From Tubulanus polymorphus (lineage: Eukaryota; Animalia; Nemertea): a stretch of DNA of 64,000 nucleotides. Positions 13,613 to 49,353 of the stretch are shown here, in pieces. The translations under genes were made by a program, and so were the position numbers. How positions within the stretch are numbered: the stretch's first letter is position 1; each line of letters starts with the position of its first letter. The stretch lies in NCBI RefSeq assembly GCF_964204645.1, contig NC_134032.1, positions 3,434,175 through 3,498,174 of the forward strand. The letters are read 5' to 3'. Below the pieces are notes generated by a model. That model saw only the letters and a program-made list of their open reading frames with translations, did not search any database and was not told the origin of the DNA.

Positions 13613-15257
13613 CTTAAAATATTCATATATATGAATAACATATAAATGAATAACTTCTAAAATCAATTTTAATAAAAAATTTGATATTAAAATGGAAGCA
13701 AATAAGTACTACTGCCCAACATGTAAGAGAAGTATAGATAAATCTCAAAAAGCAAGACACAATAAAACTAGAACACATTTAGAAAATAAATTGAAATTAG
13801 AATATAAAGATAATATATTAGAAACTAAATTAGAAGAATTAAAGAATGAAAAAGAAACATATAAATGTGATACATGTAATCAATCATTCAGTGATAAAAG
13901 ATATTATAAAGAACATTTGAAATCTCAAAGTCATATTAGAAATATGAATAATGATATTATAGGTGAAGATTATTTTGATAAGGATAATGATAAGAAACAA
14001 AGCGCAATTAAAAGAATAAAAAATAAATTAAACAATAAAAGACCATACATGGAAGATGTAAGAAATTATATTAATTCATTAGATAATAAAAAAGATATAG
14101 AAATAACCGAAGCATTCAAAAGTGATATTGGTCCAGCAGCTATTGAGTTTAAATTTCATAAAGGTAAAACAATAGAAGAAAATAAAAAAACATTTAGAAA
14201 ATATGAAAGAAATAATAAAAATAATTACAGACGTAGAATATCCTAAAATAAGTATTTCATCAAAAGTTAAATTTATAAAATCTGAAGATAAACCAATATA
14301 TAATATAAATTCTCATTCACAACATATTATTTCGAAACAACATATATATGATAAATTAAATAAATGTTATAATGAAATAAAAAGTAAAATAGAAGAGAAA
14401 TATTTTGAAGGATCAGGTTTGATATTTGATGAAATAATATTTATGACTTTACACGTCTATAACACAAAATATAATAAGGTAACTAAATCGAAACCAATTG
14501 ATGAAAATAATTTATCATATTATAAAGAACCAGATATTGAAGCATCGAGTTATATTAAACTACCATTTAAAACTAATGCTGTAATAAATGTACAAAATTT
14601 TGATGATAAATGTTTTTTATGGACAATTATAAGTTGCTTACATCCAACAGAAGATATTACTCATAGTTTTAGATTAACGCATTATAAACCATTTAAAAAT
14701 AATTATAAGATAGATAGTTATCCTGTTAAAATAAAGAATATCCCAAAAATAGAAAGAGATAATAATCTAAAATAAATGTATTTGATTTAATCAGGGAAGT
14801 GTGATGAGATGGAATACGGACGCTATTGTGCAGCTCTTGTCGAATGTGCGTTGTAATTGCCCTAAAGCCGATAACGGTTCGTCGGCGAGCGCTTTGTTAC
14901 GTAACGCGCCGATAAGCGATAACCAGCGAGATCGGGAATCTCCGTAATAATTCAGTTGTTTCCGAATATCGGTTTTTCATCCCATAATAAACTTATATAA
15001 AAATTCCTCTGTAAACTGGTTAAACTCAACACCTGATTTCCCCTCATCAATTTTAGTCAATCAACTTGTATTCACAATTGTCTTAAATTTAAGTGCCCCC
15101 TAGTTTGTCTCTTAACTGCTTCCCTTTAATCTGTTTTAGCGTGTAACTGTTTCTACGTTAATTTTCCTTTAGTTAGTATCATCTCTGATTACTTGAATTA
15201 GTCTCTTTGTCTCTGGATTGTATATATCTCTCATAATTTCTGTAGTATTCATTATTT

Positions 15258-15291
15258 CTGAAGATGACTATTAGGACATAGACGAAACGTT
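15258..15291 (+). ncRNA. Degenerate hammerhead-like motif / Penelope pLTR remnant inside the transposon
   Basis: CTGAAGA-T-GACTAT-TAGGAC-ATAGAC-GAAACGTT with one stem mismatch. Confidence 0.4.
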
Positions 15292-16002
15292 GAATGAACT
15301 ACTAACATTTTTGGACTTTTTCGTTATCATTGTGGGATTATCTCTACATCGCTTCAGACGGATATAGTGTTTTATCAATCGTGATATCGGTTCTTTCCGC
15401 TGTATTAAAATGGCAACGGTTGTCGACGAAATTATAAATGATGACGATTTTGACGATCTATTCTTTGATAGTGACGAATTGGTTCAGATCGATACGGAAA
15501 TATTACGGGAATCCTCTGGATCAGGATCAACTAATTCGGCCGATTCTAGTGAGTGTTATTCCTTTTGAATCAATGAAATATCGGAATAGTTTCCACCTAC
15601 TTGCAGGCACTTTATTCTTTCCTTTTCTTTTTCATATAGGTACTTCTCAGGCTCAGCTGACCAGAGACTGCGATCTGAACACGAGAAAACACATACAGGT
15701 ATTTTTTACATTTATTTTTATAATCAATACAATCCTTTTAGGTTATAAAATAATAAACGAATACAGAAAATAATATATAAACATAATATAAAAAATCCAG
15801 ATAAGTACATGTTAAAATAATAATCATTATTATTATTTTCGCAGGAACGCTATATATTTGGAAAAGGCTATGACTGAAGTGATTAACCATCGAGTATTTA
15901 AATTCAGTTCAAATGGAATGGCAGCAGTACATTATGGAAAATCGATCGATACAATTTTGACTACAAATACGTCGCCGTCCAGACTTGGAATTAACCAGTG
16001 GT

Positions 16003-16247
16003 TTACATGTCCATTGTTTTAATTTGATAGTCACAGGGACAGTTTTTTTTAACGTTTTTGTTCTTACGCCATTTTTGTAATTTGACACGACACATATTAC
16101 AGATATATCTCGGGTACTGTTCATTATCATCATCAAAATCAATGTTGAACAACTCCTTCACATGGCTTTTGAAATTATTTTTATCGATAGGACGACGATC
16201 CGGAGGTTTCGCATTTTTCCACACAGATCCAACACAAAGATCCATGA
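16003..16247 (-). pseudogene. Exon fragment encoding a CxxC...P-x3-CxxC zinc-binding domain (transposon N-terminal, Chapa/RAG1-N/zf-AD-like)
   Basis: After a TTTTAG acceptor, reads LCWIC(G)KNAKPP...VKELFNIDFDDDNEQYPRYICNMCRVKL with a one-base frameshift. Confidence 0.5.
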
Positions 16248-19200: not shown

Positions 19201-19945
19201 GTAACAGAATATTTGATGAAAATTTAGCAGCAGTTAAAATGAAAAGAACATCAATGAAATTTAACAAACCGATTTATGTTGGAGCTTCAGTTTTAGAAAT
19301 ATCAAAATTACTAATGTATGAATTTTATTACAATGTATTACAACCACATTTTGGAGAAAAACATATAGAAATATTATATTTTGATACAGATTCTTACATA
19401 TTAAAATTAAAAACTGATAACATAACTGATGATTTAAAAACATTAAAACATCATTTTGATTTCAGTAACTATCCTAAAAATCATGAATTGTTTACCAATG
19501 ATAATAAAAAAGTTCCTGGAAAGTTTAAGGATGAATTAGGTGGTGAAGAAATGATAGAGTTCATTGGTATTAGATCTAAAATGTATAGTTATAAAACTAA
19601 AACTCATGAAGCTAAAAAGTTAAAAGGAATTAACAAAAGCGTTGTTGAAAAGAATATTCATTTTAAAGATTACATCAATTGTATATTCAATGAAGAAGTT
19701 AGAAAACATAAGATGAAATGTTTAAGATCTGAAGATCATGAAATGTTTATTGAAGAGATAGAGAAGATAAGTCTAAACCCATTTGATGATAAAAGATATA
19801 TTTTAGATGATGGAATTCATACCGTTGCTTATGGTTGCAATTTAGATGAATACTTAAAATTTAAAAGAGAAGAAACAAAAGAGAACGAGATAATGAAAAG
19901 AATTCTAACGTGTTAATCAAATTTTAATAAAAATATGTTATTAAA

Positions 19946-20315
19946 ATGGAGAGTAAACAAGCGCACAGTGAGAACAACAAATCATTTCTAGATAGAATAA
20001 AAGATACTACAAATGTAAAATCTGTAGATTATAAATTCAAAAAGTTAAGAAGAATTAACAATCCATAAGAAATATCTAATTACAAATATTGATACAGTTA
20101 CTAATAACTATGGAGATAATAACTATGGAGATAAATTAGTTATACACTTAGAATATGAAGGATTAAAAGGAAATACATATAAATTCAGAACATATTTACC
20201 GGATAGATTTCATAGATTATCAAGTGAAGATTTAGAAGAATTATGTCCTGGAGATTTCTATTTCGTATACAAAGGTAAGAATGAAAAAGGTCACCATGAA
20301 ATAGATTTCGAATGA
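19946..20315 (+). pseudogene. Small OB-fold/SSB-like protein, element A (frameshifted)
   Basis: Homologous to intact 31852-32193; contains an extra base and a short tandem duplication near 20105-20130. Confidence 0.85.
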
Positions 20316-20332
20316 GAAAATATGTAAAATAA

Positions 20333-21087
20333 ATGGTAGAATTAAAAGAATACAGAATATTTGTAGATTCTAGAAAACTTACAAATTATAAATCTCATAA
20401 TTTACTAGTACAATTAGATAGAGAATTCAAGAATTGTGTAGATTTAAAATTAGTTAATATGAGTTTATGTAATTCTTTTTATAATATATCGAATAAAACT
20501 ATTGAACATAATACTTTTTTAATTCATATTAGAAATATAAATAAATGGTTTAATCTATTTCTAAGACCAGGATTATATAATTTAGAAACATTAGCTCAAG
20601 AAATTAATCGTAGAGCACGGTTGAAAATTAGAAAAGATGATAAATTTTTAATAAGATTTATAAAAAGTGATAGCTCAAATAAAATTAATAAAAAGGTATT
20701 TGATGAAAGTCAACATGCATTTATGGTAAAAAAACCTATAGCTAAACTGTTAGGAATTGTACCAGATACTGTTACAGGAAACGTAGAAGGCATTTCAAAT
20801 ATAATGCCTTTTACACACTTATTTATTGCAATTTAATCGATCCTACAAAAACATTCGAAGCAACTAAAGATACAACATGTAATTCTAGTATATTAAATAT
20901 TTTACCGCTGAAAAATGTTAAACAATTTGGAACGCAAATAAATTATAATTTAACAGAATGTGATTTCAAACCTTGTATTCCTCAATTTAATAATTTTAAA
21001 TTAGAAATAAGAAATCATAATGGTTATTTAATTGATTTGAATAACTTTCCTGTAATTTATGAATTAGTTATAAGATGTAAAGAGTAA
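20333..21087 (+). pseudogene. Minor capsid protein (penton), element A, frameshifted
   Basis: Colinear with 32211-32966; frameshift near 20820. Confidence 0.8.
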
Positions 21088-21103
21088 TTTTTCACCTATA
21101 TAA

Positions 21104-21461
21104 ATGAATATAACTGTTGGACCGAGTATATGTTTTGGGTTTGATTTTAAACGTGAGAAAGAAATGAAATTTAACATTAATGATGTAATTACACATATTA
21201 AAAATATTGCATTTTCTAATGAAACAACATTTGAGTATGAAACAACAATAGATAAAGAAACTTTAAATGTAGAAAAGATTACTAATTTAATTAGAGAATC
21301 TTTAAGATTTTATGAATTAGATGAAGATTTTATCATCGATGATATTTAAAAAAATAATAATTGAAATATATAAAAATGAAACTAGTAATAAAATAAATGT
21401 TGAATTAATCATAAATAAGTTAACTAAATATGTTGATGATAGTAATTTTTTTGATAAATAA
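21104..21461 (+). pseudogene. Hypothetical viral protein, element A (premature stop)
   Basis: Homologue of 117-aa ORF 32983-33336. Confidence 0.8.
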
Positions 21462-21683
21462 ATGAGTGATAATAAGTGGATAATAACTGGATTATATAAT
21501 GGAGCATTACTATCAGTTGGAACTGTTGGTTATTCAATGGTATTAAAAAAAGTATTCAAAATGGGAAGTGTTAATGTTGATAGATTTGATATAAATGATA
21601 TTTTAAAATTAACGTTAGCAGTTACTTTATCTAATTTAACTATTGATTATTTGGAAAAACAGAAATATATTCCTCCTATATAA
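21462..21683 (+). CDS. 73-aa putative membrane protein, element A
   Basis: Intact, identical protein in B; two hydrophobic segments. Confidence 0.85.
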   Translation: MSDNKWIITGLYNGALLSVGTVGYSMVLKKVFKMGSVNVDRFDINDILKLTLAVTLSNLTIDYLEKQKYIPPI

Positions 21684-21707
21684 ATGCGTAATTTTTTTAT
21701 ATAATAA

Positions 21708-22130
21708 ATGGCTTCTGCAATTATAACTATTATAGGATCGGCAATTGTTAACGCTTTAGCTTTTACAGGTGGAGGATATTTATTTAAACATATTGATAAA
21801 AATAGTTCATTAGGAGAACAAAGAAGACATAACTTAGCGTTAGAGAAATACAATAAAGCTGCAGAAGAATATAGAGAAAAGAGACAAAACTATATGGATT
21901 ACATCAATAAAGAATTATATGATCAGAAGATCTCACATAGAGATTTTCAATCAGTTGATGATGCAATGAGTTTATATAACGCGGTAACCAATAAAGAAAA
22001 ATTACATCTATACAAACCTAAATTATCAGATTATTATACCCCAAGTAAAGAACAACAGAAATATGAAATAATTTGGATTTTAGGCGGAACTGTTATTGTT
22101 ATATTTGTAGCGTATAAATTTACTAATTAG
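21708..22130 (+). CDS. 140-aa putative membrane protein, element A
   Basis: Hydrophobic N-terminus and C-terminal IIWILGGTVIVIFVAY; conserved in B. Confidence 0.85.
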   Translation: MASAIITIIGSAIVNALAFTGGGYLFKHIDKNSSLGEQRRHNLALEKYNKAAEEYREKRQNYMDYINKELYDQKISHRDFQSVDDAMSLYNAVTNKEKLHLYKPKLSDYYTPSKEQQKYEIIWILGGTVIVIFVAYKFTN

Positions 22131-22149
22131 TAATTTTTTTTCTAAATAA

Positions 22150-22557
22150 ATGGAAGATAAAGTTGATAGTATTGATATTATTCCTCATGATATAAATAAA
22201 ACTAAATTAAAAACATATTTAGAAAAACAAATATTAGAATTTGAAAGTGACTTAAAGATAAAAAAGAAAAAATATTTAAAAAGTAAAATTATATATTATT
22301 TGATTATTAGTGGTTCGGTTACAATTAGTTCTGTAATAACATTTCTAGCAATATTCAGTCCATTAACACCTTTAGCTATATCAATTGGTGTGTTAGGATT
22401 AAGTTCAAGTGTTTTAACCGATATAAGTTCAAAATTAAATATAAAAAGTAATAAAGAAAAAATGAAAACTAATATAAAAGAAATTAATAAATTAAAGAAT
22501 ACACTAGATTATATAATAAGTTTAAATGGCCATATAACAGTTGAAGAACAAGATTAA
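22150..22557 (+). CDS. Two-TM coiled-coil protein, element A (9 aa shorter than B through a stop)
   Basis: Homologue of 34025-34459. Confidence 0.8.
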   Translation: MEDKVDSIDIIPHDINKTKLKTYLEKQILEFESDLKIKKKKYLKSKIIYYLIISGSVTISSVITFLAIFSPLTPLAISIGVLGLSSSVLTDISSKLNIKSNKEKMKTNIKEINKLKNTLDYIISLNGHITVEEQD

Positions 22558-22600
22558 TTATTAAAAGAATTAATAAATTATCAATTTTTTATTTATATAA

Positions 22601-23988
22601 ATGGTAGATAGTTTTCCAAAAGCTTTCCAATATAATAAATCAATTAAATATAATATTCCAGCAATAGATTTTAATAAAGATATTACATATAGAAATGAAG
22701 TTTTAGAATCATTAACTAATTTAGAAATTTATGTTACTGAAACTAATAATTTTAATGCAAAGATGGAAAATATATTTCATGTATATTTAATTAATTTAAA
22801 AAAATTGAAAGATGAAAAACAATGGTTATTAAAATCTAATATGAAGTATTGGCAGAATCAATTAAATTTTGCTGTTTATTGTTCAACAACAGGATGTGGA
22901 ATTAGTTGGAATGATCATTTGAATAATTCTAAATATAAATTAATTCAAAGTTTATTTAGATTTCATACATACTTTCAAATAAGAATAATATTAAATGAAT
23001 TAGAGTGCGCTTTACCAGGATCAAGATATTTTAAAGAATTAGATAATAATATTAATTTATCTAAGTTTTATAAAATTTGCAATGAATTTAATATAGATAT
23101 AAATAATTCTGATTTTAGAACAAAAATTGGAACAATAAGATCACTTCCTTGCCCTAAAAAGATTGCAGAATATTGTGCACTTCCCATACCATCTAATAGC
23201 TTTTATAATATCTATAATAATAAATTAGGTTATGGTAAAATAGAAACTAAGGATTTAGAAACATTAAATTTCAATAAATTGCCGAAATTTTATGATCATT
23301 TAAAACAAGAAAACAATAATGGTTGGGTTTATTTTATTTTAGAAAACAGTGAAGGTTTTATTAAATCAGGTATAGAAAGAATAAATCAATCTATTAGAAC
23401 TTATTTGATATGTATTTTAGGTGCGCAAGTTGAAAGAAGATCACCGATAATTGGAAATTTTAATACATCATTCGATACACAAAAACAATTTAAAGTTTTA
23501 TTTGAAGATTCAATTCATAATGATAAAAATAGATCGATTCCAGAAAACATTATTAGATATCAAAATTATTTAGATAAATCACATATTAGATTAAATTATT
23601 GTATAGGCCCTAATCTATTAATTATTTCTAATGATTTAGTATTGAAGATGGGAAATATAATTGGTTATAATAATCTAATTAAAACTGCAACAATAAATAA
23701 TTCATTTGGGTTAAATGATATAAATAAAAAGATTATTACTGCTCCAAAATTAATGGAAGGTGAAAAAAATAAAAAACACATTCAATCAACTGAAACTAAA
23801 ACTAAGAATATTAAATTAAATAGTGATTCTAAAATAAAAGATTAAAATACATCAGAAAATATTAAAACCGATAAAATTCAACATGATATAATTAAACTAA
23901 ATGCTGATAATAAATCCCATGAAAATACTAAATTAGCTATATCTTGTATAGGAATTGTAATCGGAGGAAAATTATATTTTAAATTTTA
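22601..23988 (+). pseudogene. Conserved viral protein with C-terminal TM anchor, element A (premature stop at 23845)
   Basis: YWQNQLNFAVYCSTTGCGISW motif; homologue of 34477-35784. Confidence 0.8.
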
Positions 23989-24005
23989 ATTTTTTTATTA
24001 TGTAA

Positions 24006-25467
24006 ATGGATGTAGAAGGTGGAGAAGATTATGAAATGTGAGAAATGGGAAATAATAATGAAGGATATATTGATAATGAACCACAACCCGATTTTAATGA
24101 AACTAATATTGATAATGATGATGAATCAGCATATAATTCTAATTTAGCAGATAGTGGTTATAAAGCCCCATCAACAGATGAATTTGATAGAAGAACTAGA
24201 TCGAGAATAAATCCTGAAAATGAAAATCAAGGTTTATCAAGACAAGATTTAGAAAATTATAAATTTATATATAAATTCCAACATGTATTTGAAGAATCTG
24301 GATATAATATAAATGACAGAGGCGCCAGACTTTTAGTAGAAAATTTAAAACCTTTTAAAGGTAAATATTATTATCATTTGGATGGTGATTATTATATTGA
24401 TATCACTAATCAAAGGACAAGACTAACTAAAATATTAGCGGAATCAACTTTGCTTAAGTTAGAACCAGATAGAATTAAGAGAATAAGTAATAGTAATGAA
24501 ATAACTGATGTTACACAAGAAGAAAGAGATGATAATATACTAGAATTTAGTCAAAGAATTGATGACTTATTAAAAATAATCAATAATAATTTAGAAACAG
24601 AAACAACTTCTGAACAGAATAAAACTTCCAAAACTAGTAAACTTAAATCAAATAAAGTTCCAATTGAAAAACTTTTACCGAATGGATTACTTGATGCAAC
24701 AGATCAAGAATTAGAAGATTTAGATATATTTTCTGATAAAGCAATTAGAGAAATTATTAGTATAAGACTTGCATCTGATAAAATTGCGCATGATAAAAGT
24801 ATAAGAGATTTTAAAATTAGAACTTTAGAAAAAGAATTAACTGATAAAAATAAAGAAATAGAACAATTAAAGTCTGATTTAGATCATCAAGTAATTGATG
24901 AAATAGAATATAGGCAAAAAGAATTACGTTTAGAAAAAGAAATTAGTAATTTAAAAGATAATTTAGAAGTACAGAAAGAAGAAATTAAATTATTATTAAA
25001 ATCATATGATTATAATATTAATAGATTAAAAGATGTTTTTAAAAGATATCTAATAAAACCAGATTCTAAAATATCATTGAAAGATAGAATAAAGTTATTG
25101 TTTAAATTAGAAGGAATAACAATTCTTTCAATTCTAACAGCTGTAACTATGTTATTTACAACAATTGGTTTAGCAATATCAAATGCTTTAAAATCTACTC
25201 CTACTCCCAATAAACCAGATAAACCCAGGTAATAATTCTATACAAGATAAAGTTAAAGATGGTTTAAAGAAATTAGCAAAATATCTATGGGAACTATCTA
25301 AAAAATCTGCTGCAGCTTTACCAGGAATTATTGCATCAATTGTTGGTTTTATATTGAAATCTGCTGGGAATATTCTTAACTTTGCTGCTGAACATATTAT
25401 TTTATTTTTAATAACAGTTGTAAGTGCTATTATTTTTGGATTAGTAAACATGATCAAAAATAAATAA
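24006..25467 (+). pseudogene. Acidic N-terminus / coiled-coil protein with C-terminal hydrophobic helices, element A
   Basis: MDVEGGEDYEM start, early GGA>TGA, frameshift near 25225; C-terminal ITILSILTAVTMLF, ALPGIIASIVGFIL, IILFLITVVSAIIFGLV. Confidence 0.8.
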
Positions 25468-25488
25468 TTAATTTTTTTTGTTAAATAA

Positions 25489-26736
25489 ATGAGTGGGAGT
25501 TATATAAGTCCTTCTAAGATTTCTAAAATATCTAATGCTATTAAAGCAGAAAGATCACATCATATAATTACTCATAACCCTTCAAATATTAATCCCGATG
25601 AAACTTTATATGTTAGAATTCCTAGATTAACACAAAATACTTTTTACGTTCCAAACAGTATTTATTTATCAGCCGATATAAAAGTATCTGGTCATGATAA
25701 TAATTATGTTTTTGATAATGTTGGAAGATATTTGATTAAAAAGTTAACAATAAAGATTGGTCCAGAAACAGTTTTCTCATTAGATGATTATAATTTATTT
25801 ATGCATTATAAAGATTTATGGTTAACTAAAGAAAATAGAAATAATATGATATTTCAAGGCATCCAATCAGAAAACCAAAATAAATTAAGATCAGAAGCTA
25901 ATAGCGCAATATTAACTAATGTTGTAGATAAATTGATAAAAAGTATATATGGAAGCAAATATAAAATTCCATTAGACTTTGAATTGATAAATAATAATGC
26001 ACCTTTACATAAATACGCAATTCAAGAAGACGTTATATTCGAAATAACATTTGCTCCTGTAAATGAAATTGTATTATCTAGCGTTGTTAAAGATATGAGT
26101 TGTAAATTATCGAATATATGTTTAGAATATGATACAGTAACTGATGAAAATATTTCAAGTATAATTCAAACTCAATACAATCAAGGATTTTCATTATTAT
26201 ATGATTATATTGATAAATTTAAAACCGTAACTATTAATGCAAATGATGAAATAATTAATGAGAATATTAACTTCCCAAGAAGATCTATTAAAGGTATACT
26301 AATATTTTTTACCATTGCAACATATACTAATGGCGCAATAAATGTTGATAATTATTATAATCCTGAAATAACAAAAGTAGAAATAACTATCGAAGGAATA
26401 GCAAATAAAATATTTTGTCAAGGAATGAGAATGATTGATCAATGGCCAGAAATTAGAAAACATTTTATGAATGAAAAAGTAAAATCATCTGAAAATTGTA
26501 ACATTAATCAAATTGATTATTATACCGGCAATAGATATGCATTATGGTTAGATTTTAGAACAACAGAGGATAATTCATTACATGGTTCTGGAAAAAAACT
26601 ACAGAACACTAAAGATGGAATACAATTATTCATGACAAAGAATAAAGGAATCAAAAATTTTAAAATGCACATTTATATTATATCTGACGCACAATTAAAT
26701 ATCGTAAATTCACAATTAGATAGTGTTATGTATTAA
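25489..26736 (+). CDS. Major capsid protein, double jelly-roll type (only copy in the cluster)
   Basis: 415-aa intact ORF with beta-rich pattern typical of Polinton-like MCPs (LIKKLTIKIG, YKIPL, LSNICLEYD, ALWLDF...HGSG, IYIISDAQLNI); genomic context. Confidence 0.75.
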   Translation: MSGSYISPSKISKISNAIKAERSHHIITHNPSNINPDETLYVRIPRLTQNTFYVPNSIYLSADIKVSGHDNNYVFDNVGRYLIKKLTIKIGPETVFSLDDYNLFMHYKDLWLTKENRNNMIFQGIQSENQNKLRSEANSAILTNVVDKLIKSIYGSKYKIPLDFELINNNAPLHKYAIQEDVIFEITFAPVNEIVLSSVVKDMSCKLSNICLEYDTVTDENISSIIQTQYNQGFSLLYDYIDKFKTVTINANDEIINENINFPRRSIKGILIFFTIATYTNGAINVDNYYNPEITKVEITIEGIANKIFCQGMRMIDQWPEIRKHFMNEKVKSSENCNINQIDYYTGNRYALWLDFRTTEDNSLHGSGKKLQNTKDGIQLFMTKNKGIKNFKMHIYIISDAQLNIVNSQLDSVMY

Positions 26737-26768
26737 AATTTTAACTTTAATAAAAAATCTTATATTAA

Positions 26769-27446
26769 ATGGAAGGAGGTAAAGTATATGAAAGAATCAA
26801 AGCTGATAAAGAAATCAATGATGATTTGTATTATGTAATACCTTATAAAAGAATAAATGAATATATTGGAACATTTTTATTAAACGAATTAAATCAATAC
26901 AAAGAATATTTAATTGAACGTAATAATAATATTGATATAAAAATAGAAGATAATATTGAAACAAAAATAGAAGATAATATTGAAACAAAAATAGATAATA
27001 ATATTGAAAAAAAAATAGAAGATAATGTTATACCTTCTACATCGAATGATGATAAGATTGAAACAAAAATAGAACATAATATTGAACCTAAAATAGAAAA
27101 ATCAAATGTTCAACCAAAAGATAACATCAGATGTATGTATTGTGAAGAAGATTTTGATAATTATAATGATTATTTATTGCACATCAAAAAAGATGAACAT
27201 ATTTTACAATTAGTAAAAACATATGCTAATATATATAAAGATAAATGCAAAGAGGATCAGAATTATTGTGCCTTCTGTAATGAATGTATAACAAAGGCTA
27301 ATTGGGCAAAACATTATAAATTAAAAACTAAAGGTGGAAATGATTCGGCCCATGCAATACAGGTATTTAAATCTTGGTGTGAAAAATGTAAAGAATATGT
27401 AATATATGATAAACAATTGAATCATAAATACTCAATTAAACATATT
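26769..27446 (+). pseudogene. Triple C2H2 zinc-finger protein, element A, 5' part (3' part at 43441-43807)
   Basis: CMYC..H..H, CAFC..H, CEKC..H; 24-bp (IEDNIETK)n repeats at ~26928-27023; split by element B. Confidence 0.85.
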
Positions 27447-27712
27447 AGTAATAGGGGTAATAGGCTTTCAGATCAAAGGTCGAACGGTTGAGCTCGTAAA
27501 AAATGAAAAACATAAAAATAATTACAATTTCTACTTGAATTACTCGCGAAACTCATAAAAATGAAAAATAAATTCTCACACGCTCGAATTTATTTTTCAT
27601 TTTATGAGTTTCACTCCTAATTCAAGTAGAAATTGTAATTATTTTTATGTTTTTCATTTTTACTCACCCGCCCGTTCAACCTTTAACCCGAAAGCCTATT
27701 ACCCCTATTACT
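27447..27712. repeat. Terminal palindromic hairpin of element B (266 bp)
   Basis: AGTAATAGGGGTAATAGG...internal loop TCGCG/CACTC...tip loop TCACACGCTC...CCTATTACCCCTATTACT. Confidence 0.95.
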
Positions 27713-27794
27713 CTTAAAATATTCATATATAAATGAATAACATTTAAATCATTGAACTTCTAAAATCAATTTTAATAAAAAATATAGTATTAAA

Positions 27795-31823: not shown

Positions 31824-31851
31824 TCAATTTCAATAAAAATTTGTATAATAA

Positions 31852-33558: not shown

Positions 33559-33582
33559 ATGCATAATTTTTTTGTTAAATAA

Positions 33583-34005: not shown

Positions 34006-34024
34006 TAATTTTTATTCTAAATAA

Positions 34025-34459
34025 ATGGAAGATAAAGTTGATAATATTGATATTATTCCTCATGATATAAATAAAACTAAATTAAAAACATATTTAGAAA
34101 AACAAATATTAGAATTTGAAAGTGACTTAAAGATAAAAAAGAAAAAATATTCAAAAAGTAAAATTATATATTATTTGATTATAAGTGGTTCGGTTACAAT
34201 TAGTTCTGTAATAACATTTCTAGCAATATTCAGTCCATTAACACCTTTAGCTATATCAATTGGTGTATTAGGATTAAGTTCAAGTGTTTTAACTGGTATA
34301 AGTTCAAAATTAAATATAAAAAGTAATAAAGAAAAAATTAAAACTAATATAAAAGAAATTAATAAATTAAAGAACACACTAGATTATATAATAAGTTTAA
34401 ATGGTTATATAACAGTTGAAGAACAAGATAAATTATTAAAAGAATTAATAAATTATTAA
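34025..34459 (+). CDS. 144-aa two-TM coiled-coil protein, element B
   Basis: IIYYLIISGSVTISSVITFLAIF and LAISIGVLGLSSSVLTGI flanked by charged helices. Confidence 0.85.
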   Translation: MEDKVDNIDIIPHDINKTKLKTYLEKQILEFESDLKIKKKKYSKSKIIYYLIISGSVTISSVITFLAIFSPLTPLAISIGVLGLSSSVLTGISSKLNIKSNKEKIKTNIKEINKLKNTLDYIISLNGYITVEEQDKLLKELINY

Positions 34460-34476
34460 TTTTTTTAGTTATATAA

Positions 34477-35784: not shown

Positions 35785-35800
35785 TTTTTTTATTATGTTA

Positions 35801-36817: not shown

Positions 36818-37676
36818 TATTGAAACAAAAATAGAAGATAATATTGAAACAAAAATAGAAGATAATGTTATACCTTCTACATCGAATGATGATAAGATTG
36901 AAACAAAAATAGAACATAATATTGAACCTAAAATAGAAAAATCAAATGTTCAACCAAAAGATAACATTAGATGTATGTATTGTGAAGAAGATTTTGATAA
37001 TTACAATGATTATTTATTACACATCAAAAAAGATGAACATATTTTACAATTAGTAAAAACATATGCCAATATATATAAAGATAAATGTAAAGAGGATCAG
37101 AATTATTGTGCCTTCTGTAATGATTGTATAACAAAGGCTAATTGGGCAAAACATTATAAATTAAAAACAAAAAGTGGAAATGATTCAGCCCATGCAATAC
37201 AAGTATTTAAATCTTGGTGTGAAAAATGTAAAGAATATGTAATATATGATAAACAATTGAATCATAAATACTCAATTAAACATATTGGTACAGATAATGT
37301 AATAGAAAATCCAAAAGTTATAAATCCAAAATTTAATAATAAGAATATATTAGATTATCGGTGGTATAGAAAAACATTTATAGATTATTTATTGAGTAAT
37401 GATATAGTTACCATATTGAAAAAGTTAGATAACTTTAAACCAAATGTAACTTATGCAATGAACTTATTTGAACTTAAATATGATGATTTTAGAGAATTGT
37501 TAAATAAACATCCATCTAAAACTGAAATCGAAAATTATATTCCAAAAATATTTTCAAGAAAAACATTCAGGAATTATAAACTTGGGAATTATTTAGGACC
37601 TATACCAATAAAAATACAAAGGGATATATATTTAGAATACAATAAGCTTAAAGAAAAATATGAAAATGAAAATTAA
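36810..37676 (+). pseudogene. Zinc-finger protein, element B, 5'-truncated
   Basis: Contains the uninterrupted equivalent (CATATTGGTACAGATAATGTAATAG) of the site where B sits in A. Confidence 0.85.
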
Positions 37677-37680
37677 AAAG

Positions 37681-38294
37681 ATTATAGAATTCACTGTATA
37701 TTGATGGATGAATGGATGAGTTGGAAGAGTTGGATGAGTTGGATGAGTGGAAGAGTGGATGAGTATAATAATATATATATTTTACTTTTTAACACATAAA
37801 TTGGAAGAATAGTGAGTATAAATATAATATTTTTATTCTTTATTGAATTTAACACAAATTAAATTTAACACAATATATATTTATTATTATATGATATTTA
37901 TTATTTATTATTATATGACATTTATTATTTATCATTTTATTATTTATTATTTTATAAAAATATATTTATTATTATATGAAATTTATTATCTGTCATTTTA
38001 TTATTTTATAAAAATATATTTATTATTTATCATTTTATTATTTATCATTTTATTATTTATTATTTTATAAAAATATATTTATTATTATATGACATTTATT
38101 ATCTGTCATTTTATTATTTTATAAAAATATATTGATTATTATATGACATCTTCAAATCAAACTCTTACTGTTTTAAAAATAAAAAACATATGTAAATTAT
38201 ATATTATTACACTCTTCCATTCATCCACTCTTCCAATTCATCCAATTCATCCAATTCATCCACTCATCCATCAATATACAGTGAATTCTATAAT
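37681..38294. repeat. Central fold-back between convergent gene blocks, element B
   Basis: Inverted arms ATTATAGAATTCACTGTATATTGATGG(ATGAGTTGG)n ... (CCAATTCAT)nCCATCAATATACAGTGAATTCTATAAT around an AT-rich low-complexity spacer. Confidence 0.9.
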
Positions 38295-38310
38295 ATTTTG
38301 AATTAGGATT

Positions 38311-38925
38311 TTATTTTATAAATTTATATTCATATGGAAATTGTAATCTCATTAATAATTTTGAACCTTTATTATTTTTTAATTTATTCATATATTCATC
38401 ATGTAATTCAGTAGGTATAATTTGATTTTCTTCCAATGATTGTTGCATAGATTTTCTATCTTTGTTGTAGAATAAAACTAGAAATCTTATATTCTCTCTA
38501 AAATCTTTCACAATTGAATTATATTTCTGATTTAAAACCCATGTTGTTATCCCAAAATGTCTACCAGAGAAAGCTAAATAACATAACTCACTTTCTCTAA
38601 TTTTAGAATCATGTAAATTTGCGCAATCATCGATAATAAATAATGTATTAGATCCTTTATAAATATCTAATGTAATTTTTATACAATTATCTAAATTATC
38701 TTTCACTGTTTTAGAATTTAATATAATAAACTTTTTATCTTTAAAAACTATATCTCTATTATACGTTTCATTCATTTCATAAGTAGGACAGAATAATATT
38801 ATATTATCAAAATGATTCTTATAAATAGTTTCTAATAAATCTAATATGAAGTGTGTTTTACCGCAGTTTGTAACTCCAGTTATTAACATATTATGTGGTT
38901 CAAATATAAATAAATCTTTATTCAT
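38311..38925 (-). CDS. A32/FtsK-like genome-packaging ATPase, element B
   Basis: Walker A GVTNCGKT, Walker B LFIIDD, GRHFGITTWVLNQ. Confidence 0.92.
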   Translation of the reverse strand: MNKDLFIFEPHNMLITGVTNCGKTHFILDLLETIYKNHFDNIILFCPTYEMNETYNRDIVFKDKKFIILNSKTVKDNLDNCIKITLDIYKGSNTLFIIDDCANLHDSKIRESELCYLAFSGRHFGITTWVLNQKYNSIVKDFRENIRFLVLFYNKDRKSMQQSLEENQIIPTELHDEYMNKLKNNKGSKLLMRLQFPYEYKFIK

Positions 38926-40005: not shown

Positions 40006-40008
40006 ATT

Positions 40009-40368
40009 TCAATCCATTAATAATATTTTAGATTTAGTTTCAATGGTTTTATGATTTGACTTATTTTCTGGTATGATAGGTTTATTATCATTAGAATCAT
40101 CTTTATCATCGGATTTGAATTTTGATTTATATATTACACCGGATAATATAATAACTGTGATTAACCCAATTGTAATATATAAGTAATTATAAGATTCAGC
40201 TGTGCTGAATCTATTAGATGGATTATTATTTGAATCAATATCAGATTCATTTATATCAGTTAATTTCTTTTTCTTAGCTTTTTTTAATTCTGATGATCTT
40301 TTACCTAATTCTCTTGCCCATTTAATTTGTTTCTCGGATCTAGCCTTTTTCTTAACTCCATCACTCAT
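40009..40368 (-). CDS. Basic single-TM protein (119 aa), element B
   Basis: RSEKQIKWARELGK plus YITIGLITVIILSGVIY; homologue in A. Confidence 0.8.
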   Translation of the reverse strand: MSDGVKKKARSEKQIKWARELGKRSSELKKAKKKKLTDINESDIDSNNNPSNRFSTAESYNYLYITIGLITVIILSGVIYKSKFKSDDKDDSNDNKPIIPENKSNHKTIETKSKILLMD

Positions 40369-40966
40369 TTATTTTAGTTAATTTTTGTTCTGATTCATTT
40401 TCTGTTTCGATGTTTTGTTGTAGTACATCTGTTTCGTTCTTACCTGATTTATATTCCATATGCTTGATGTTCGAAAATGTTATGACGCCAGTAGAAATTA
40501 ATGTCATAACCGATCCTAATTGAAATGAAGCGTATCCAACCCATTTTTGTAATTCAGTCATAACTAAGTAGTCATTTTTCAAATCATTATATAATTTATT
40601 TTCATCATCAATTGGTATTAACTGGTTACATAACTTAGAATAACATTTGACAATACCATCTGAAATAGAATCATTTATTCTAGCTAATCTTGACTCTTCA
40701 TAAATCTTAAAATATTTTTTTACTTTTTCTTTGTTCATATTATCTAATTCTTGAAAAGTTATTGTTTTACCAATAAACTCTTTAGTTTTTCCACTCGCAA
40801 TCAATAGTTCTAGATGATGCTTACAATATAAATAGTACTCGTAATCAATATTACTATCAATTTTATTATCACATTTAGTTGCCACATTATCATTATCATC
40901 TGTTAAACCTAAATCTTCCAAAGTTTTTTCAACTTTAATATTATTCTTATTCGATTTCTTAGACAT
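40361..40966 (-). CDS. Hypothetical protein with C-terminal hydrophobic segment (201 aa), element B
   Basis: Intact, conserved core with 46264-46881. Confidence 0.8.
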   Translation of the reverse strand: MSKKSNKNNIKVEKTLEDLGLTDDNDNVATKCDNKIDSNIDYEYYLYCKHHLELLIASGKTKEFIGKTITFQELDNMNKEKVKKYFKIYEESRLARINDSISDGIVKCYSKLCNQLIPIDDENKLYNDLKNDYLVMTELQKWVGYASFQLGSVMTLISTGVITFSNIKHMEYKSGKNETDVLQQNIETENESEQKLTKINE

Positions 40967-41192: not shown

Positions 41193-41861
41193 TTAACCAC
41201 TCATTAAAGACTCAACGTATTGTTCATTATTTGGATTATTATTCCATTGATCAATAAATTTCTTTGCCTTTGTTAACTGTTCTAAATATAACTGTAAATC
41301 TAGTTTATTAGATTTGATTTGATTTTCTTTCTTTTCTAAAGGTCTTAAATTTTTCCAACCCCAAATAAGTTTTTTATTGTATTCATCATTCATGTTAAAT
41401 TTAGATATTGGTAACACGTGATCAATGTGGTAATAATCCCCATAATTATCTATATTCATTTTATCATCGAATTGAAATATAATCCATGATTTGAGAAATT
41501 CATCTGAACAACCCAACAAATTAGATAGGGTTTCTGAATGCGTTTCTTTGTTGAATAATTTTGATACTTTAGATCTTAAGCATTGTTTCAATCTAAAATT
41601 AAGATCTGTTTGATATCTTTCTCTCATATATTTTGTCATATAATAATTATAATGTTCTATATTATCTTCTCGATATTGTTTAGTATATAGTTTAGTACAA
41701 GTTTTACAACAATATTGAAAACCATCTTTGCTAATCTTACGCTTACTAAATTCTGTTAAAGCTAATTTATCTAATTCACATTTAGAACACTTCTTGTAGT
41801 ATATGTTTATAACACCAGTGTTATTTGTAATATTGATAATTTGTGGTTGTTCTGGTTCCAT
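41193..41861 (-). CDS. HNH-type endonuclease with N-terminal Zn ribbon, element B
   Basis: KKCSKC...CCKTC; LLGCS; HIDHVLP...KNLRPL...EN..KSNK. Confidence 0.85.
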   Translation of the reverse strand: MEPEQPQIINITNNTGVINIYYKKCSKCELDKLALTEFSKRKISKDGFQYCCKTCTKLYTKQYREDNIEHYNYYMTKYMRERYQTDLNFRLKQCLRSKVSKLFNKETHSETLSNLLGCSDEFLKSWIIFQFDDKMNIDNYGDYYHIDHVLPISKFNMNDEYNKKLIWGWKNLRPLEKKENQIKSNKLDLQLYLEQLTKAKKFIDQWNNNPNNEQYVESLMSG

Positions 41862-42004
41862 TTATTATATGTATTTTTTTTACTAAATTGGTTAATAATT
41901 TTAGAATCCTCTTCCATTTCTCCGACCAACGTCATCCTTTTTCATTCCTCGCTGCTTTTGATAAGTTGTTTCGATTCCTTGATATCTAAATAATACCACT
42001 GGGT

Positions 42005-42390
42005 AAAAGCGCGCATTCGTGCGCGGTTTTTCTTAATGCGCATGCGTTAAGCATAATTATATATTCATTCTATAAATTCTGTAAAATAGAAACGACACAT
42101 GCGTTACATGCGTCACATGCGGCCATTGATGTCCGGTTTTGCTTAATGCACATGTGTTAATCATAATAGAAACAACCGATATGAAATATTTAAATAATAC
42201 CACTGGGTAAAACCGCTCTTATAGGAGCGTTTTTGCTTAATGCGCATGCGCTAATCATAATTATATATTCATTCTATAAATTCTGTAAAATAGAAACGAC
42301 CGACATGAAATATCAAAACGTGTTCGCATTAGGCAAACCGCGCATTCATGCGCGCTTTTGCTTAATGCGCATGCGCTAATCATAATTGAA
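42005..42390. repeat. Tandem double-hairpin units (4 in B; 2 in A at ~47985-48190)
   Basis: GC-rich stem-loop followed by CTTAATGCGCATGCG(T/C)TAA(T/G)CATAAT repeated. Confidence 0.8.
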
Positions 42391-43145
42391 ACGAATTATT
42401 ATTGAAACGACTGAACATAAAAATTCACCAAACAGATTTACACAATACATTATACAATTTGTTCAGTCGTTTCTTCCAATACATCATTTGATTTCTATAA
42501 ATACAATTTATAATTACAAACATTTTTTCAATTGTTGGTAAATATTTAACTACAACAACAAATGTTAAACTTAATCATTGGAGTCTCAATGTTTTTGAAA
42601 TTCTTATATAGTTTCTTCATCGATCTTTTGGTGATTCTATTGGTTCGATATCCATTGCTGTTGATTCCTCAGTCAGAAAGAGTATCTTGAGTTTCTCTAT
42701 CACTTCTTGATGCGTATGACGTTTTATTAATCTAAAAGATATTAGCGGTAACTCTAACCATCTAAAATATATACTAAATACACTTAAATATATCTAAAGG
42801 TTTCGTATTTAATAGCCTTAATAACTACAACAAACAGTACTTACATTTAGATTTATAATTGTATACTATAAACTCCTTATTTCGTTTCGAAAGATAGAAT
42901 ATCCTGAGCACAATATTACAGCGTATATCCATTTCCGGGGCGATTTCTAGAATGAACACGTCGTTGATTATGCCACGTCATCTAGTTCCGGTTCGAGAGT
43001 GTTCTACACGTTTCTGATTATGACGTGTCATAATGTCTCGTCGTTATAGTAACAACTGTAACAGCTGTGAATTTATAGATTTATTCTATAGCTCTGTACA
43101 TTGAATGTATATAGGTTAAAATAGAATCATTTTCTAGTATAAACA

Positions 43146-43807: not shown

Positions 43808-43821
43808 GTTCTATTTATATA

Positions 43822-44149: not shown

Positions 44150-44186
44150 GCATATTCAAAATTCTCTAATATTTTAAATTAGGATT

Positions 44187-44797
44187 TTATTTTATAAATT
44201 TATATTCATAGGGAAATTGTAATCTCAGTAATAATTTTGAACCTTTATTATTCTTTAATTTATTCATATATTCATCATGTAACTCAGTAGGTATAATTTG
44301 ATTTTCTTCCAATGATTGTTGCATAGATTTTTATCTTTGTTATAAAATAAAACTAGAAATCTAATGTTTTCTCTAAAGTCTTTAACAATTGAATTATATT
44401 TTTGATTTAAAACCCAAGTTGTTATCCCGAAATGTCTTCCAGAGAAAGCCAAATAACATAACTCACTTTCTCTAACTTTTGAATCATGTAAATTTGCGCA
44501 ATCATCTATAATGAATAATGTATTTGATCCTTTATAAGTATCAATTGCTATTTTAATACAATTATCTAAATTTTCTTTTACTGTTTTAGGGTCTAATATA
44601 ATAAACTTTTTTATCTTAACTATATCTCTATTATATGTTTTATTCATTTCATAAGTAGGACAGAATAATATTGTATTATCAAAATGATTCTTATAAATAG
44701 TTTCTAACAAGTCTAATATGAAATGTGTTTTACCACAATTGGTTACTCCAGTTATTAACATATTATGCGGTTCAAATATAAATAAATCTTTATTCAT
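44187..44797 (-). pseudogene. Packaging ATPase, element A (frameshift near 44330)
   Basis: Walker A/B and GRH motifs; colinear with B copy. Confidence 0.9.
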
Positions 44798-45878
44798 TTA
44801 TTCTTTTAATTTTACTAGATAAAATCCATTCATTAAATTTATCATCGTATCCTTTATATTTCACTAGAGAATATTTCTTACCGCGTAATGTTTTTGTTTT
44901 CAATACCTTTTCTATCTTGTATTCTATTTCATCTGGATTTGGTACTAATGATAATTCTTGTTCATAAAAATAAACTAATATTTCTTCATCTTTTAAGTCA
45001 AATAATTTATAAACAAAAGGTTTAGTTAATATTATCTTTTTAATTTGAAATATTTCTTCAGTAAAATTAGTGGTATAACCTTTATAAAATGTTTTTCTAT
45101 ATTTCGATATTCTAATATGTTGTCCAATTTTAAATTTGGGTTCTCCAAAATCATGTGTAACTAATGCTCCATATAAATTATTCCAAACTATTTCTGAATT
45201 ATCTTCTTTTCTAGCTTGTATAGGTTTCATATTTATAGAACTATGTTTAGAATTATTATAACCTTTCACTAAATCATCTAACACATTGATATATTTATAT
45301 GTTTCATTAGCAGTAAAATATTTCCACATTCTAGTTTTCAATGTTTTATTAAATCTTTCTATAATAGATGCTTTTTTATCTGAATGTGTTGAAAAATATT
45401 CTACATCGTTATCAGATAATAGTTTTTTGAAATGTTTGTTATAAAATTCCTTACCTTCATCAAATTGTATCTTATCTGGAATAGCTTCTTTAAATATAGA
45501 TTTAAAAGCATTTGTTACTTCTATTCCAGTTTTATTTTTGATTGGAATTGACCACGCGTATCTACTGAATATATCTATAACATTTAAAATCCAAAAATAT
45601 CCTTTGTTATATTTTTCTAAGTTTTTCATATCAATTAAATCAGCTTGCCATTGTTGGTCAATATATTAAACCATTACTTTTCTTGTTAAATATTTTTTAT
45701 CCATCTTTTTATGAATTTGATATGTGGGTTGATTTTGTAACCATGATTTTAATTCACTATATTTTATTTTTTCTTTATCGGATTTAATTTTATCCCATAG
45801 TTCCGAAACACTTGAATATGAAACTTCACTTTCTGGGTTATAATATAAATCTCTTAAATATTGTTCTTTTTTCATCAT
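44790..45878 (-). pseudogene. rve integrase with chromodomain, element A (single TCA>TAA nonsense at ~45666)
   Basis: WQADLID, IDIFSRYAW, IQFDEGKEF, IIERFNKTLK; chromodomain YKIEKVL...LVKYKGYDDKFNEWI. Confidence 0.92.
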
Positions 45879-45881
45879 ATT

Positions 45882-46271: not shown

Positions 46272-46881
46272 TTATTTTACTTAACTTTTGTTCTGATTCA
46301 TCTTCTGTTTCGCCGTGTGGATGTTGTGCGGCACCATCTGTTTCGATCTTACCTGATTTATTATCTTTACATACTATAGGTTTAATGTTAGAAAATGTTA
46401 TAACTCCAGTCGAAATCAATGTCATAACCGATCCTAATTGGAATGAAGCGTATCCAACCCATTTTTGTAATTCAGTCATAACTAAGAAGTCATTTTTTAA
46501 ATCACTATATAATTTATTTTCATCATTAATTGGCATTAGCCGGTTACATAATTTTGAATAACATTTGATAAAACCATTAGAAATAGAATCATTTATTCTA
46601 GCTAATCTTGACTCTTCATAAATCTTAAAATATTTGATTACTTTTTCTTTGTTCATATTATCTAATTCTTGAAAAGTTATTGTTTTACCAATAAACTCTT
46701 TAGATTTTCCACCGGCAATCAATAGTTCTAGATGATGCTTACAATATAAGTAGTATTCATAATCTATATTGTTATTAACTTGAATAGAATTAGAAACAAC
46801 TGTATCTTTATTATCACTTATACCCAAATCATCTAATGTCTTTTCAATATCAATATTATTCTTATTAGATTTCTTTGACAT
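46264..46881 (-). CDS. Hypothetical protein (205 aa), element A
   Basis: Homologue of 40361-40966. Confidence 0.8.
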   Translation of the reverse strand: MSKKSNKNNIDIEKTLDDLGISDNKDTVVSNSIQVNNNIDYEYYLYCKHHLELLIAGGKSKEFIGKTITFQELDNMNKEKVIKYFKIYEESRLARINDSISNGFIKCYSKLCNRLMPINDENKLYSDLKNDFLVMTELQKWVGYASFQLGSVMTLISTGVITFSNIKPIVCKDNKSGKIETDGAAQHPHGETEDESEQKLSKINE

Positions 46882-47159
46882 TTATATTAGAGAAATTTAA
46901 TAAGAAAAATATTATAAGTATTATAAAATGATACTAGCTAGTTAAAGCTAAAGAATTCTAGTATTAGTTATTGTTTTTTTAGAATTTTTTATTTGTGATA
47001 TAAAGTATTCTTTTTTGAAAAGAAAATATTAAAAATTAAAATAGAAATTATAGATAGTTGAAGTTATTGTCTTTTTAATATATTTTATTTGAATTCTATT
47101 TGATATCTCACTACTTTTGTTTATCTATTAGGAGCAGTAGTTATAAATGTGCAGATAAG

Positions 47160-47834
47160 TCATTTCGGATCCTTGATATCAAATTCCTCAACATATTGTT
47201 CGTTATTTGGATCATTGTTCCATAATTCAACAAATGTCTTTGCTTTATCCAGTTGATCTAAATATAATTTCATATCTAGTTTATTAGATTTAATTATGTT
47301 TTCCTTCTTTTCTAAAGGTCTTAAATTCTTCCAATTCCAAATAAGTTTTTTATTGTATTCATCATTCATGTTAAATTTAGATATTGGTAACACGTGATCA
47401 ATATGAAAGTATTCACCATAATTATCTATATTCATTTTATCATCGAATTGAAATATAATCCATGATTTGAGAAATTCATCTGAACAACCCAATAGATTAG
47501 ATAGTGTTTCTGAATGTGTTTCTTTGTTGAATAATTGTGTTAATCTAGATCTTAAGCATTGTTTCAACCTAAAATTAAGATCTGTTTGATATCTTCCTCT
47601 AATATATTCTGTCATATAATCATTGTAAGCTTCTCTATTATCTTCTCGATATTGTTTGGTATATAGTTTAGTACAAGTTTTACAACAATATTGAAAACCA
47701 TCTTTGCTAATCTTACGCTTACTAAATTCTGTTAATGATTTATCTAATTGACATTTAGAACACTTCTTGTAATATATATTTATAACACCAGTGTTATTTG
47801 TAATATTGATAATTTGTGGTTGTTCTGATTCCAT
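47160..47834 (-). CDS. HNH-type endonuclease, element A
   Basis: Same motifs as 41193-41861. Confidence 0.85.
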   Translation of the reverse strand: MESEQPQIINITNNTGVINIYYKKCSKCQLDKSLTEFSKRKISKDGFQYCCKTCTKLYTKQYREDNREAYNDYMTEYIRGRYQTDLNFRLKQCLRSRLTQLFNKETHSETLSNLLGCSDEFLKSWIIFQFDDKMNIDNYGEYFHIDHVLPISKFNMNDEYNKKLIWNWKNLRPLEKKENIIKSNKLDMKLYLDQLDKAKTFVELWNNDPNNEQYVEEFDIKDPK

Positions 47835-49176
47835 TTATTATACACATTTTTTTACTAAATTGGTTAATATTTTAGAATCCTCTTCCATTTCTTCGACCAA
47901 CGTCATCCTTTTTCATTCCTCGTTGCTTTTGATAAATTGTTTCGATTCCTTGATATCTAAATCATACCAGTTACAATACCCGCGTCACATGCGGCCATTT
48001 ATGGCCGGTTTTGCTTAATGCACATGTGTTAATCATAATTATAAATTCATTCTATAAATTCTGTAAAATAGAAACAACTGAACATAGAAAATTCGAACGC
48101 ATTCATGTTCTCGTCACATGCGTTACATGTGTCACATGCGGCCATTTATGGCCGGTTTTGCTTAATGCGAATGCGTTAATCATAATAGAAACGACTGAAC
48201 ATAAAAATTCACAAATCAGATTTACACAATACATTATACAAGTTGTTCAGTCATTTCTTCCAATACATCATTTGATTTCTATAAATACAATTTATAATTA
48301 CAAACATTTTTCAATTGCCGGTAAATATTTAACTACATCAACAAATGTTAAACTTAATCATTGGAGTCTTAATGTTTGTGAAATTCTTATATTTCTTCTT
48401 CGATCTTTTGGCGATTCTATTGGTTTGATATCCACCGGTTTGTGCGTGTTTAATTTGACACCAGTTCCACAGTTGTATATAGGTTTATTTGACTCTGGGC
48501 CTAGTTCCACAGTTATCTAAAAGATATACCAAAATATAAATTGCTACACATAAATATATTTAAAGGTTTCATATTTAGCGGCCCTAATAAACAAAAACTG
48601 TACTTACATTTAACTCTCGAACTGTAAACTGTATATGATGCGGCGTTTATGAGACTGTTATGATACAGCGTTTATGAGAATATCCTGGTTATGGACGCAA
48701 CGTTTATGATACTATATCCTGGTTATGACACAATGTTTATGAGACTATATCCGTTGAAAAGCGATCGATATATGCTGGTATTTCGTTCTGTGTGTGTATA
48801 CGCAACTAATTGCTTTTCACCCGTCGACTGTCAAGCGTCTGATGTGCGCGCCTATTTATACTATTCTATGTCCAGAAACATCTAGAACAAGCGTGTTGAG
48901 ACTTGCAAATTATGACACTTTTGATTGGTTAGAGCTTAGTTGTCCAGAAACATCTAGAAAGCGCGTCGTGACTTGTAAATTATGAGATTTGTGATTCGGT
49001 AACGTCCGCTGTATACACAACACGTTGAGACTTGTAAATATAGTTGAAAAAAAATCAATAATAAAGGCATTTAGATCAATGAAATTAATTAACTCTTTAC
49101 AATTGAAATATAAGCTGGTAACATATGTTTACTAGAGCTAATACAACCAACTATATAGCTGAGTATTATCAGGCGT

Positions 49177-49350: not shown

Positions 49351-49353
49351 TTT

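Follow-up and report, generated by a model that had tools for sequence, protein, structure and literature searches.

We analysed a stretch of 64,000 nucleotides from the nemertean Tubulanus polymorphus (assembly GCF_964204645.1, contig NC_134032.1, positions 3,434,175 to 3,498,174; hereafter the window, with positions counted from its first letter) that contains copies of an AT-rich, integrated Polinton. The genes of this animal Polinton and of its close relatives carry a clade-specific start signal, TAAATG placed over the start codon, with the geometry of poxvirus late promoters. The sharing of promoters with a helper virus is already known from protist provirophages, Loki's Castle virophages and the transpoviron of a pacmanvirus, as far as the accessible parts of those reports describe it, and its counterpart on an animal Polinton is a variant of that kind. 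Based on sequence geometry, phylogenetic restriction and analogy, we infer that these motifs are probably poxvirus-type post-replicative promoters, for which a cytoplasmic helper virus infecting the same cell would supply the RNA polymerase. Transcription by a helper of some kind, either poxvirus-like or another nucleocytoplasmic large DNA virus (NCLDV), appears likely. The more specific scenario is tentative and falls a little short of being probable: a Polinton lineage would have switched once from host-type starts to a two-class poxvirus intermediate/late code and would be the endogenous virophage of an undiscovered invertebrate poxvirus-like virus.

Two classes of signal precede the genes of the window. 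In the first, a T-run is followed by TAAATG. This arrangement was found on the forward strand at a 117-aa gene family (21086..21106), a 73-aa gene (21444..21464, where the TAA doubles as the upstream stop), a 140-aa gene (21690..21710), families of 144 aa (22132..22152) and 435 aa (22583..22603), a coiled-coil gene that is broken in this copy (23988..24008) and the major capsid gene (25470..25491), where this signal varies among genomic copies only in the length of the T-run. The corresponding starts (21104, 21462, 21708, 22150, 22601, 24006 and 25489) are those at which the first-pass annotation, made by a model from the letters alone, had reported the motif. The counterparts that it had announced in a second copy, B, are present at 33337, 33583, 34025 and 34477; the copy-B start at 32983 has four Ts only and that of the copy-B coiled-coil gene reads TTAATG. 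In the second class the T-run is replaced by an A-rich core. Also on the forward strand, this core precedes TAAAATG at the family B DNA polymerase (PolB) genes of copy A (13668..13694) and copy B (27771..27797) and at an OB-like gene of copy A (19923..19948), and TAAATG at a Zn-finger gene (26746..26771) that is interrupted at 27447 by copy B. A variant of the core with TAAATG precedes a 113-aa gene (31829..31854) whose OB-like label comes from the first-pass annotation and is unconfirmed. All six A-run starts reported previously were recovered (13692, 19946, 26769, 27795, 41861 and 47834), together with further ones at 31852 (TTTCAATAAAAA) and at the partial PolB starts 43352 and 52792.

Across the whole window, the T pattern matched 11 times and the A pattern nine times, every time at a gene start, and a looser expression for the T pattern had one match away from gene starts. 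The A class represents four distinct genes in the window, with PolB counted up to four times. The bare count of T patterns in copy B is unexceptional (four observed against a mean of 0.71 and a maximum of four in 300 block shuffles); the non-random aspect of this pattern is its position at gene starts. The first-pass annotation had made its proposal depend on an enrichment over an AT-rich background, and this enrichment was found: after paralogues were collapsed, strict TAAATG was present at 14 of 16 gene starts (15 when TAAAATG is included) versus 28 of 253 other ATGs with matched AT content (Fisher p 6e-11). When the upstream 30-mers were shuffled, at most 8 starts presented TAAATG in any of 100,000 trials. 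The RVE integrase is the sole gene of the window without TAAATG. The T-run is located 8-14 bases upstream of TAAATG in one class, and the A-run is found in the other. Intergenic gaps had been described as only about 15-35 bp; eight measured gaps span 0-32 bp. Finally, the TAAATG and T-run core of the capsid gene showed no substitution at or above 2% in reads of the genomic copies (about 750-800x), and the adjacent positions 25440-25455 vary widely among the same copies.

This signal is restricted to one part of the family. Our capsid alignment yielded 78 loci, 70 of which had at least one start placed by homology and blind to the motif. We defined as close the 14 loci with at least 48% capsid identity to the window and as distant the other 56. 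TAAATG was present at 38 of 47 homology-placed starts in the close loci versus 3 of 109 in the distant loci of the same gene family. In AT-rich distant loci strict TAAATG was found at 0 of 18 starts, and 7 of 9 starts presented it in three close loci with a GC content of 0.36-0.44. In a capsid tree built by maximum likelihood (43 rows, with 36 broken or short rows excluded), the window and the 14 close loci formed a single clade with a support of 99/98. The patterns defined on the window gave 22/25 (T) and 5/6 (A) at the starts of long open reading frames (ORFs) in 15 close loci. The position L003:11054 was rejected as a PolB start, as it is not detectable as such. Searches of phages, IMG/VR and GTDB with the capsid or the ATPase returned no relatives.

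The signal belongs to the start and not to the upstream gene, since the TAA served as stop codon of the preceding gene in a single case of eight measured and since divergent pairs carry the motif: genes lying head to head 19, 28, 28 and 30 bp apart (loci L002, L008, L009 and L011) present TAAATG on both strands. The nucleotide at -3 also sets the clade apart. A purine occupies this position at 7 of 47 clade starts, where T is favoured, versus 99 of 109 distant starts, and at 31 of the 35 distant starts with AT-rich upstream DNA. In poxviruses, transcripts start inside TAAAT and acquire a poly(A) leader at their 5' end. A T at -3 would be expected under such a mechanism, and a leader of this kind, added by slippage, would allow the clade to tolerate T where its relatives keep a purine. 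Such 5' leaders are mentioned in the accessible text of PMC7458399.

We then compared the geometry of the starts with that of vaccinia virus using the window and 10 non-redundant close loci (five near-duplicate or broken loci were dropped). The overall arrangement T6-N7-9-TAAAT recalls the poxvirus late/resolution consensus. Gene families of the T class have a T ten bases upstream of TAAAT at 31 of 33 starts. As given in the accessible part of PMC11980589, vaccinia late promoters also have this T, intermediate promoters have TAAA and an A-rich upstream part without that T, and early promoters are A-rich with TG. Judging from the sequence, the T class thus presents the features of a poxvirus late promoter, TAAAT(G) over the ATG and a T ten bases upstream. 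By analogy, the starts of PolB, Zn-finger, penton and ATPase genes fit intermediate-type promoters in outline: the A class is conserved for the Zn-finger gene (3/3) and the penton (2/2), and the ATPase is A-leaning (5/5), while the vaccinia A32 ATPase gene is itself described as intermediate in the same partial source. The first-pass annotation had named the two classes early and late. This did not hold up, because TAAA(A)TG terminates the motif of the A class too and the NCLDV early core AAAATTGA is absent within 80 nt of all nine starts checked; AAAnTGA occurs at only two of the nine, at -63 (OB-like gene) and -33 (119-aa gene). Intermediate and late fit the two classes better. Several differences with vaccinia are clear. 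Here, the motifs lie on a small integrating element without transcription genes and are known from sequence alone. In addition, the major capsid gene belongs to the T class, whereas the vaccinia scaffold gene D13L is intermediate, according to the available excerpt.

Under the poxvirus-type reading, late promoters would correspond to the T-run class and intermediate promoters to the A-run class, with transcription starting inside TAAAT. Like a provirophage, the element would stay mostly silent while integrated and be expressed once a poxvirus-like (Pokkesviricetes) virus infects the cell. As the first-pass annotation had stated, the element has no detectable RNA polymerase (Pfam scan of the 39 ORFs of the window, cut-off E 0.05). 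If the more specific scenario of a single switch is true, the promoter code would be a footprint from which the helper can be predicted, and it would separate helper-dependent clades of Polintons from autonomous ones. With this clade-restricted and easily scored signature, the mode of transcription of animal Polintons and their possible need for a helper become directly testable. The signature suggests that an animal element behaves like a provirophage, and it points to a poxvirus-like virus that has yet to be sampled.

Several observations weigh against this reading. The clade represents one evolutionary event and includes near-duplicate loci, such that p values across clades overstate independence. 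The specific A motif was found only in an inner subclade (L001-L005), no PolB start was seen outside the window, and the integrase lacks TAAATG in three of four relatives as it does in the window. The classes are not cleanly divided by function either: the penton is of A type in copies A, B and L003, starts of T type occur at the OB-like gene in L003 and at four HNH-like genes in relatives, and the penton seems to be preceded by a T-run in other copies in the genome. The sharp split between structural and replicative genes drawn previously is therefore not supported, and a family-level permutation gave 3/495 with class groups chosen after seeing the window. No potential helper was recovered. 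Dense TAAATG starts were found in 0 of 119 IMG/VR loci with the A pattern among the matches listed, the best having 3 of 5 ORFs; of these 119, TAAATG was absent from the ORF starts of 86 and present at one start in 27, at two in five and at three in one. Homologue searches with the HNH and deoxynucleoside kinase (dNK) proteins yielded no virus names, the HNH-like gene belonging to a very large family. Integration needs the nucleus, and the element contains a GC-richer non-coding region with host-factor-like repeats. Endogenous coral polintoviruses show transcripts of hallmark genes in ordinary coral RNA-seq, according to the accessible text of PMC11131425.

Word counts in coding strands were compared to expectations from synonymous-codon shuffles. 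TTTTTNT is depleted in the clade (15 versus 42.1 expected) in both classes, and its loss exceeds the general avoidance of T5 (fraction 0.22 vs 0.34, binomial p 0.034); it is not depleted in AT-rich distant relatives. T-runs in general are depleted (62 vs 104), and A-runs are depleted too. In vaccinia, the avoidance of TTTTTNT is a feature of early and not of post-replicative genes, which counts against the reading, as does the fact that this pattern, avoided in both classes, is one of several tested. The depletion hints at a poxvirus-like polymerase sensitive to T5NT, yet it misfits a purely post-replicative vaccinia model.

Alternatively, the signals could be read by the host, as a Pol II initiator or short-leader translation signal or as AATAAA poly(A) signals combined with stop-start coupling, although we consider this unlikely. 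The element lies in nuclear DNA and contains GCGCATGCG, TGACGT and CCGGAA words at 41862-43145, genes of coral polintoviruses are transcribed, and 12 of 16 genes have an AATAAA no more than 30 nt from their ATG. AATAAA is not depleted in the coding strands of the window (70 in 13.9 kb vs 66.5 expected), which speaks for the helper reading; however, this test discriminates weakly, as distant relatives taken together do not avoid it either (132 vs 132.2; AT-rich subset, 46 vs 55.3). Stop-start coupling was rejected on the rarity of TAA as an upstream stop and on the head-to-head pairs; indeed, the motif is found at the first genes of blocks and in such pairs, where no gene lies upstream. Trans-splicing was rejected as well, since no conserved AG was found among the starts listed. 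Distant relatives keep a context opposite to the T at -3 and, given the spacing of Pol II, a TATA box placed directly against the ATG would put the transcription start within the ORF.

A helper related to asfarviruses, or another cytoplasmic NCLDV, is quite unlikely. The frequent TATATAAATG would then be its late initiator of the TATA type, and the T-runs would also serve the upstream gene as polyT terminators. African swine fever virus has a TATA late initiator and terminators of 6-7 T, as reported in the accessible text of PMC7458399. In line with this, ATATAAATG is present at many starts, T-runs of at least five lie within 3 nt of the stop for 3 of 15 window genes, and T-runs are depleted in coding strands. 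However, the near-invariant part of the signal is TAAATG, whereas position -5 is divided between T (24 of 47 starts) and A (23). The distance of the T-run is fixed to the downstream ATG and not to the upstream stop, and the T-run is present in head-to-head pairs, which also speaks against a role mainly as a terminator. Moreover, the PolB, penton, integrase and 201-aa genes lack T5 within 300 nt downstream.

It is improbable that the signals are a relic of a former dependence of the clade on a poxvirus-like helper, from which present copies are no longer expressed. All copies of the window have breaks, nested insertions or deletions, and genomic copies are mostly 90-99% similar to the window. 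Nevertheless, the motif is less variable than adjacent DNA among copies, and it is kept down to about 50% capsid identity and across rearranged gene orders, which indicates long selection. Finally, chance in AT-rich DNA combined with biased ORF calling (an in-frame TAA makes the next ATG an ORF start) is hardly credible and already refuted for TAAATG despite the low GC of the element and the copy-B T-pattern count reached by a shuffle, since starts placed blind to the motif separate close from distant loci, AT-matched controls do not reproduce the signal and GC-richer members retain TAAATG.

The poxvirus-type promoters proposed here can be placed among known systems. Mavirus and the EMALE provirophages of Cafeteria carry pPolB and RVE integrase. 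Like our element, they are integrated small viruses with a double-jelly-roll (DJR) capsid, with promoters matching the late class of their helper. Only EMALEs with CroV-like late promoters reactivate, according to the accessible part of 10.1101/2025.10.09.676808, and the late motif of mavirus and CroV is TCTA-based in that of PMC5294985. These systems differ by their protist host, mimivirid helper and TCTA motif, whereas our element has a likely animal host, a Polinton-type capsid and two motif classes. The PLVs associated with entomopoxviruses (Barth et al. 2024, PMC11296320) are also Polinton-like elements linked to poxviruses but, in the available text, they have adenovirus-type protease, tyrosine recombinase and primase-helicase modules, whereas our element has pPolB and RVE and no detected protease. 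The words motif, transcription, upstream and RNA polymerase are absent from the accessible main text of that article. With animal Polintons/Mavericks such as adintoviruses and coral polintoviruses, our element shares pPolB, RVE integrase, packaging ATPase, major and minor capsid proteins, terminal repeats and many genomic copies; it differs by its palindromic termini and the absence of a detected maturation protease, and distant members of its own family lack TAAATG. The word promoter does not occur in the accessible text of the animal polintovirus papers PMC8502044 and PMC11131425, nor in that of an egovirus preprint in which relatives of poxviruses are tied to parabasalid Polintons by gene transfer. 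We found no report of TAAATG promoters in Polintons in the literature searched, in which subscription journals are thinly covered.

The element itself forms an AT-rich island (GC about 0.2-0.26; element about 0.22) within host DNA, where a rhodopsin-family GPCR gene makes an animal host likely, and presents the Polinton/Maverick hallmarks pPolB, RVE integrase, packaging ATPase, DJR capsid and penton. The protein-primed-type PolB of copy B (1342 aa, 27795..31823, forward strand) is 90-92% identical to its copies at the DNA level. DNA_pol_B_2 was matched by the pieces of copy C (E 1.5e-12) and copy A (E 2.3e-6), and the 1342-aa ORF alone matched only Endonuclease_7 and zinc fingers in Pfam. The major capsid protein (415 aa, 25489..26736, forward strand) was predicted as a double jelly-roll with a pLDDT of 83 and matched the PBCV-1 capsid (E 1.5e-16); in comparisons of the predicted fold, the mavirus capsid ranked under PBCV-1 and iridovirus. 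The penton (minor capsid; 251 aa, 32211..32966, forward strand, TAAATG with an A-type core) matched that of mavirus (E 7.7e-11) and is followed by the copy-B genes of 117, 73, 140, 144 and 435 aa (32983..35784, forward strand), each with a T-rich core and TAAATG. On the reverse strand lie the A32-like packaging ATPase (38311..38925; Pox_A32 E 1.6e-12; TAAATG with an A-leaning core), the 119- and 201-aa genes (40009..40966, TAAATG at both), HNH-like genes in copy B (222 aa, 41193..41887) and in copy A (47160..47859), both with an A-core and TAAATG, and the RVE integrase with a chromodomain (44790..45878; rve E 5.6e-8 plus Chromo), which is split in this copy. Several small proteins with hydrophobic segments are also encoded. 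No adenain-like maturation protease was detected among the 39 ORFs, and we rejected a canonical adenain-bearing adintovirus on this basis. Lavidaviridae, the virophages proper, were rejected as well, based on the missing protease and on capsid homologues found in Polinton-type loci.

Self-comparison resolved three related copies: A (13419-27446, resuming at about 43440-49356), B (27447-43440, nested within the Zn-finger gene of copy A) and C (49352-53266, partial and inverted). The PolB gene of copy A is broken by an unrelated insertion at about 14793-16948, a multi-copy host repeat that reads skip. The left termini of copies A (13419..13612) and B (27447..27712) are palindromes of 194 bp (imperfect, AGTAAT...ATTACT, -82.8 kcal/mol as DNA) and 266 bp, and the A-core PolB start of copy C with its 396-bp terminal palindrome covers 52790..53266 on the reverse strand. 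These 190-400-bp imperfect palindromes (13419-13612, 27447-27712 and 52871-53266) share their outer arms but not their centres; in the accessible literature, Halocafeteria virophages and PLVs are likewise described with terminal palindromes. In one DNA run, coverage was mostly 300-1000x over the element against about 10x in a flanking bin, and 1259 reads exit at position 27447 into diverse flanks. The element is therefore a multi-copy, many-times-integrated Polinton with palindromic AGT...ACT termini; its right ends are truncated, and a target duplication (6 bp in Polintons) was not identified. In three further contig runs of the same species label (X8, X9 and X10) the motif genes had no or near-no cover, which says nothing on expression; of two runs with small shares, X5 gave only short pieces and X6 nothing over the stretch examined.

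Other features of the window and its relatives deserve mention. A close relative encodes a deoxynucleoside kinase (L003:10340-10981, Pfam dNK E 1.7e-31) with a T-run and TAAATG, which would be in keeping with replication away from the nuclear nucleotide supply; its sole relative in IMG/VR (L198, 37%) lacks the TAAATG grammar. Capsid proteins of the clade are annotated as hypothetical proteins of Bartonella sp. (cluster P0046/P0135). They are likely contamination from eukaryotic DNA and suggest that the clade is not confined to one habitat. The GC-richer non-coding part mentioned above (41862..43145 in copy B, with a counterpart at 47835-49176 in copy A) has GCGCATGCG repeats that we take to be NRF1-like and, from its sequence, could be a control region read by the host. 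A spacer between converging gene blocks (37663..38312) is bounded by inverted repeats, such that the transcripts converging on it from either side would have identical terminal sequences; these arms of inverted GGATGA/TTGGA repeats also flank a spacer at about 43830-44190. At the right ends (43146-43352 and 49177-49356), short chimeric ORFs fuse the PolB N-terminus to an HNH-like C-terminus. The CpG observed/expected ratio is 0.55 in the element (17000-41800) versus 1.12 in both flanks, and the host flank contains an intronless rhodopsin-family GPCR gene at 54209-55273 (7tm_1 E 2e-18).

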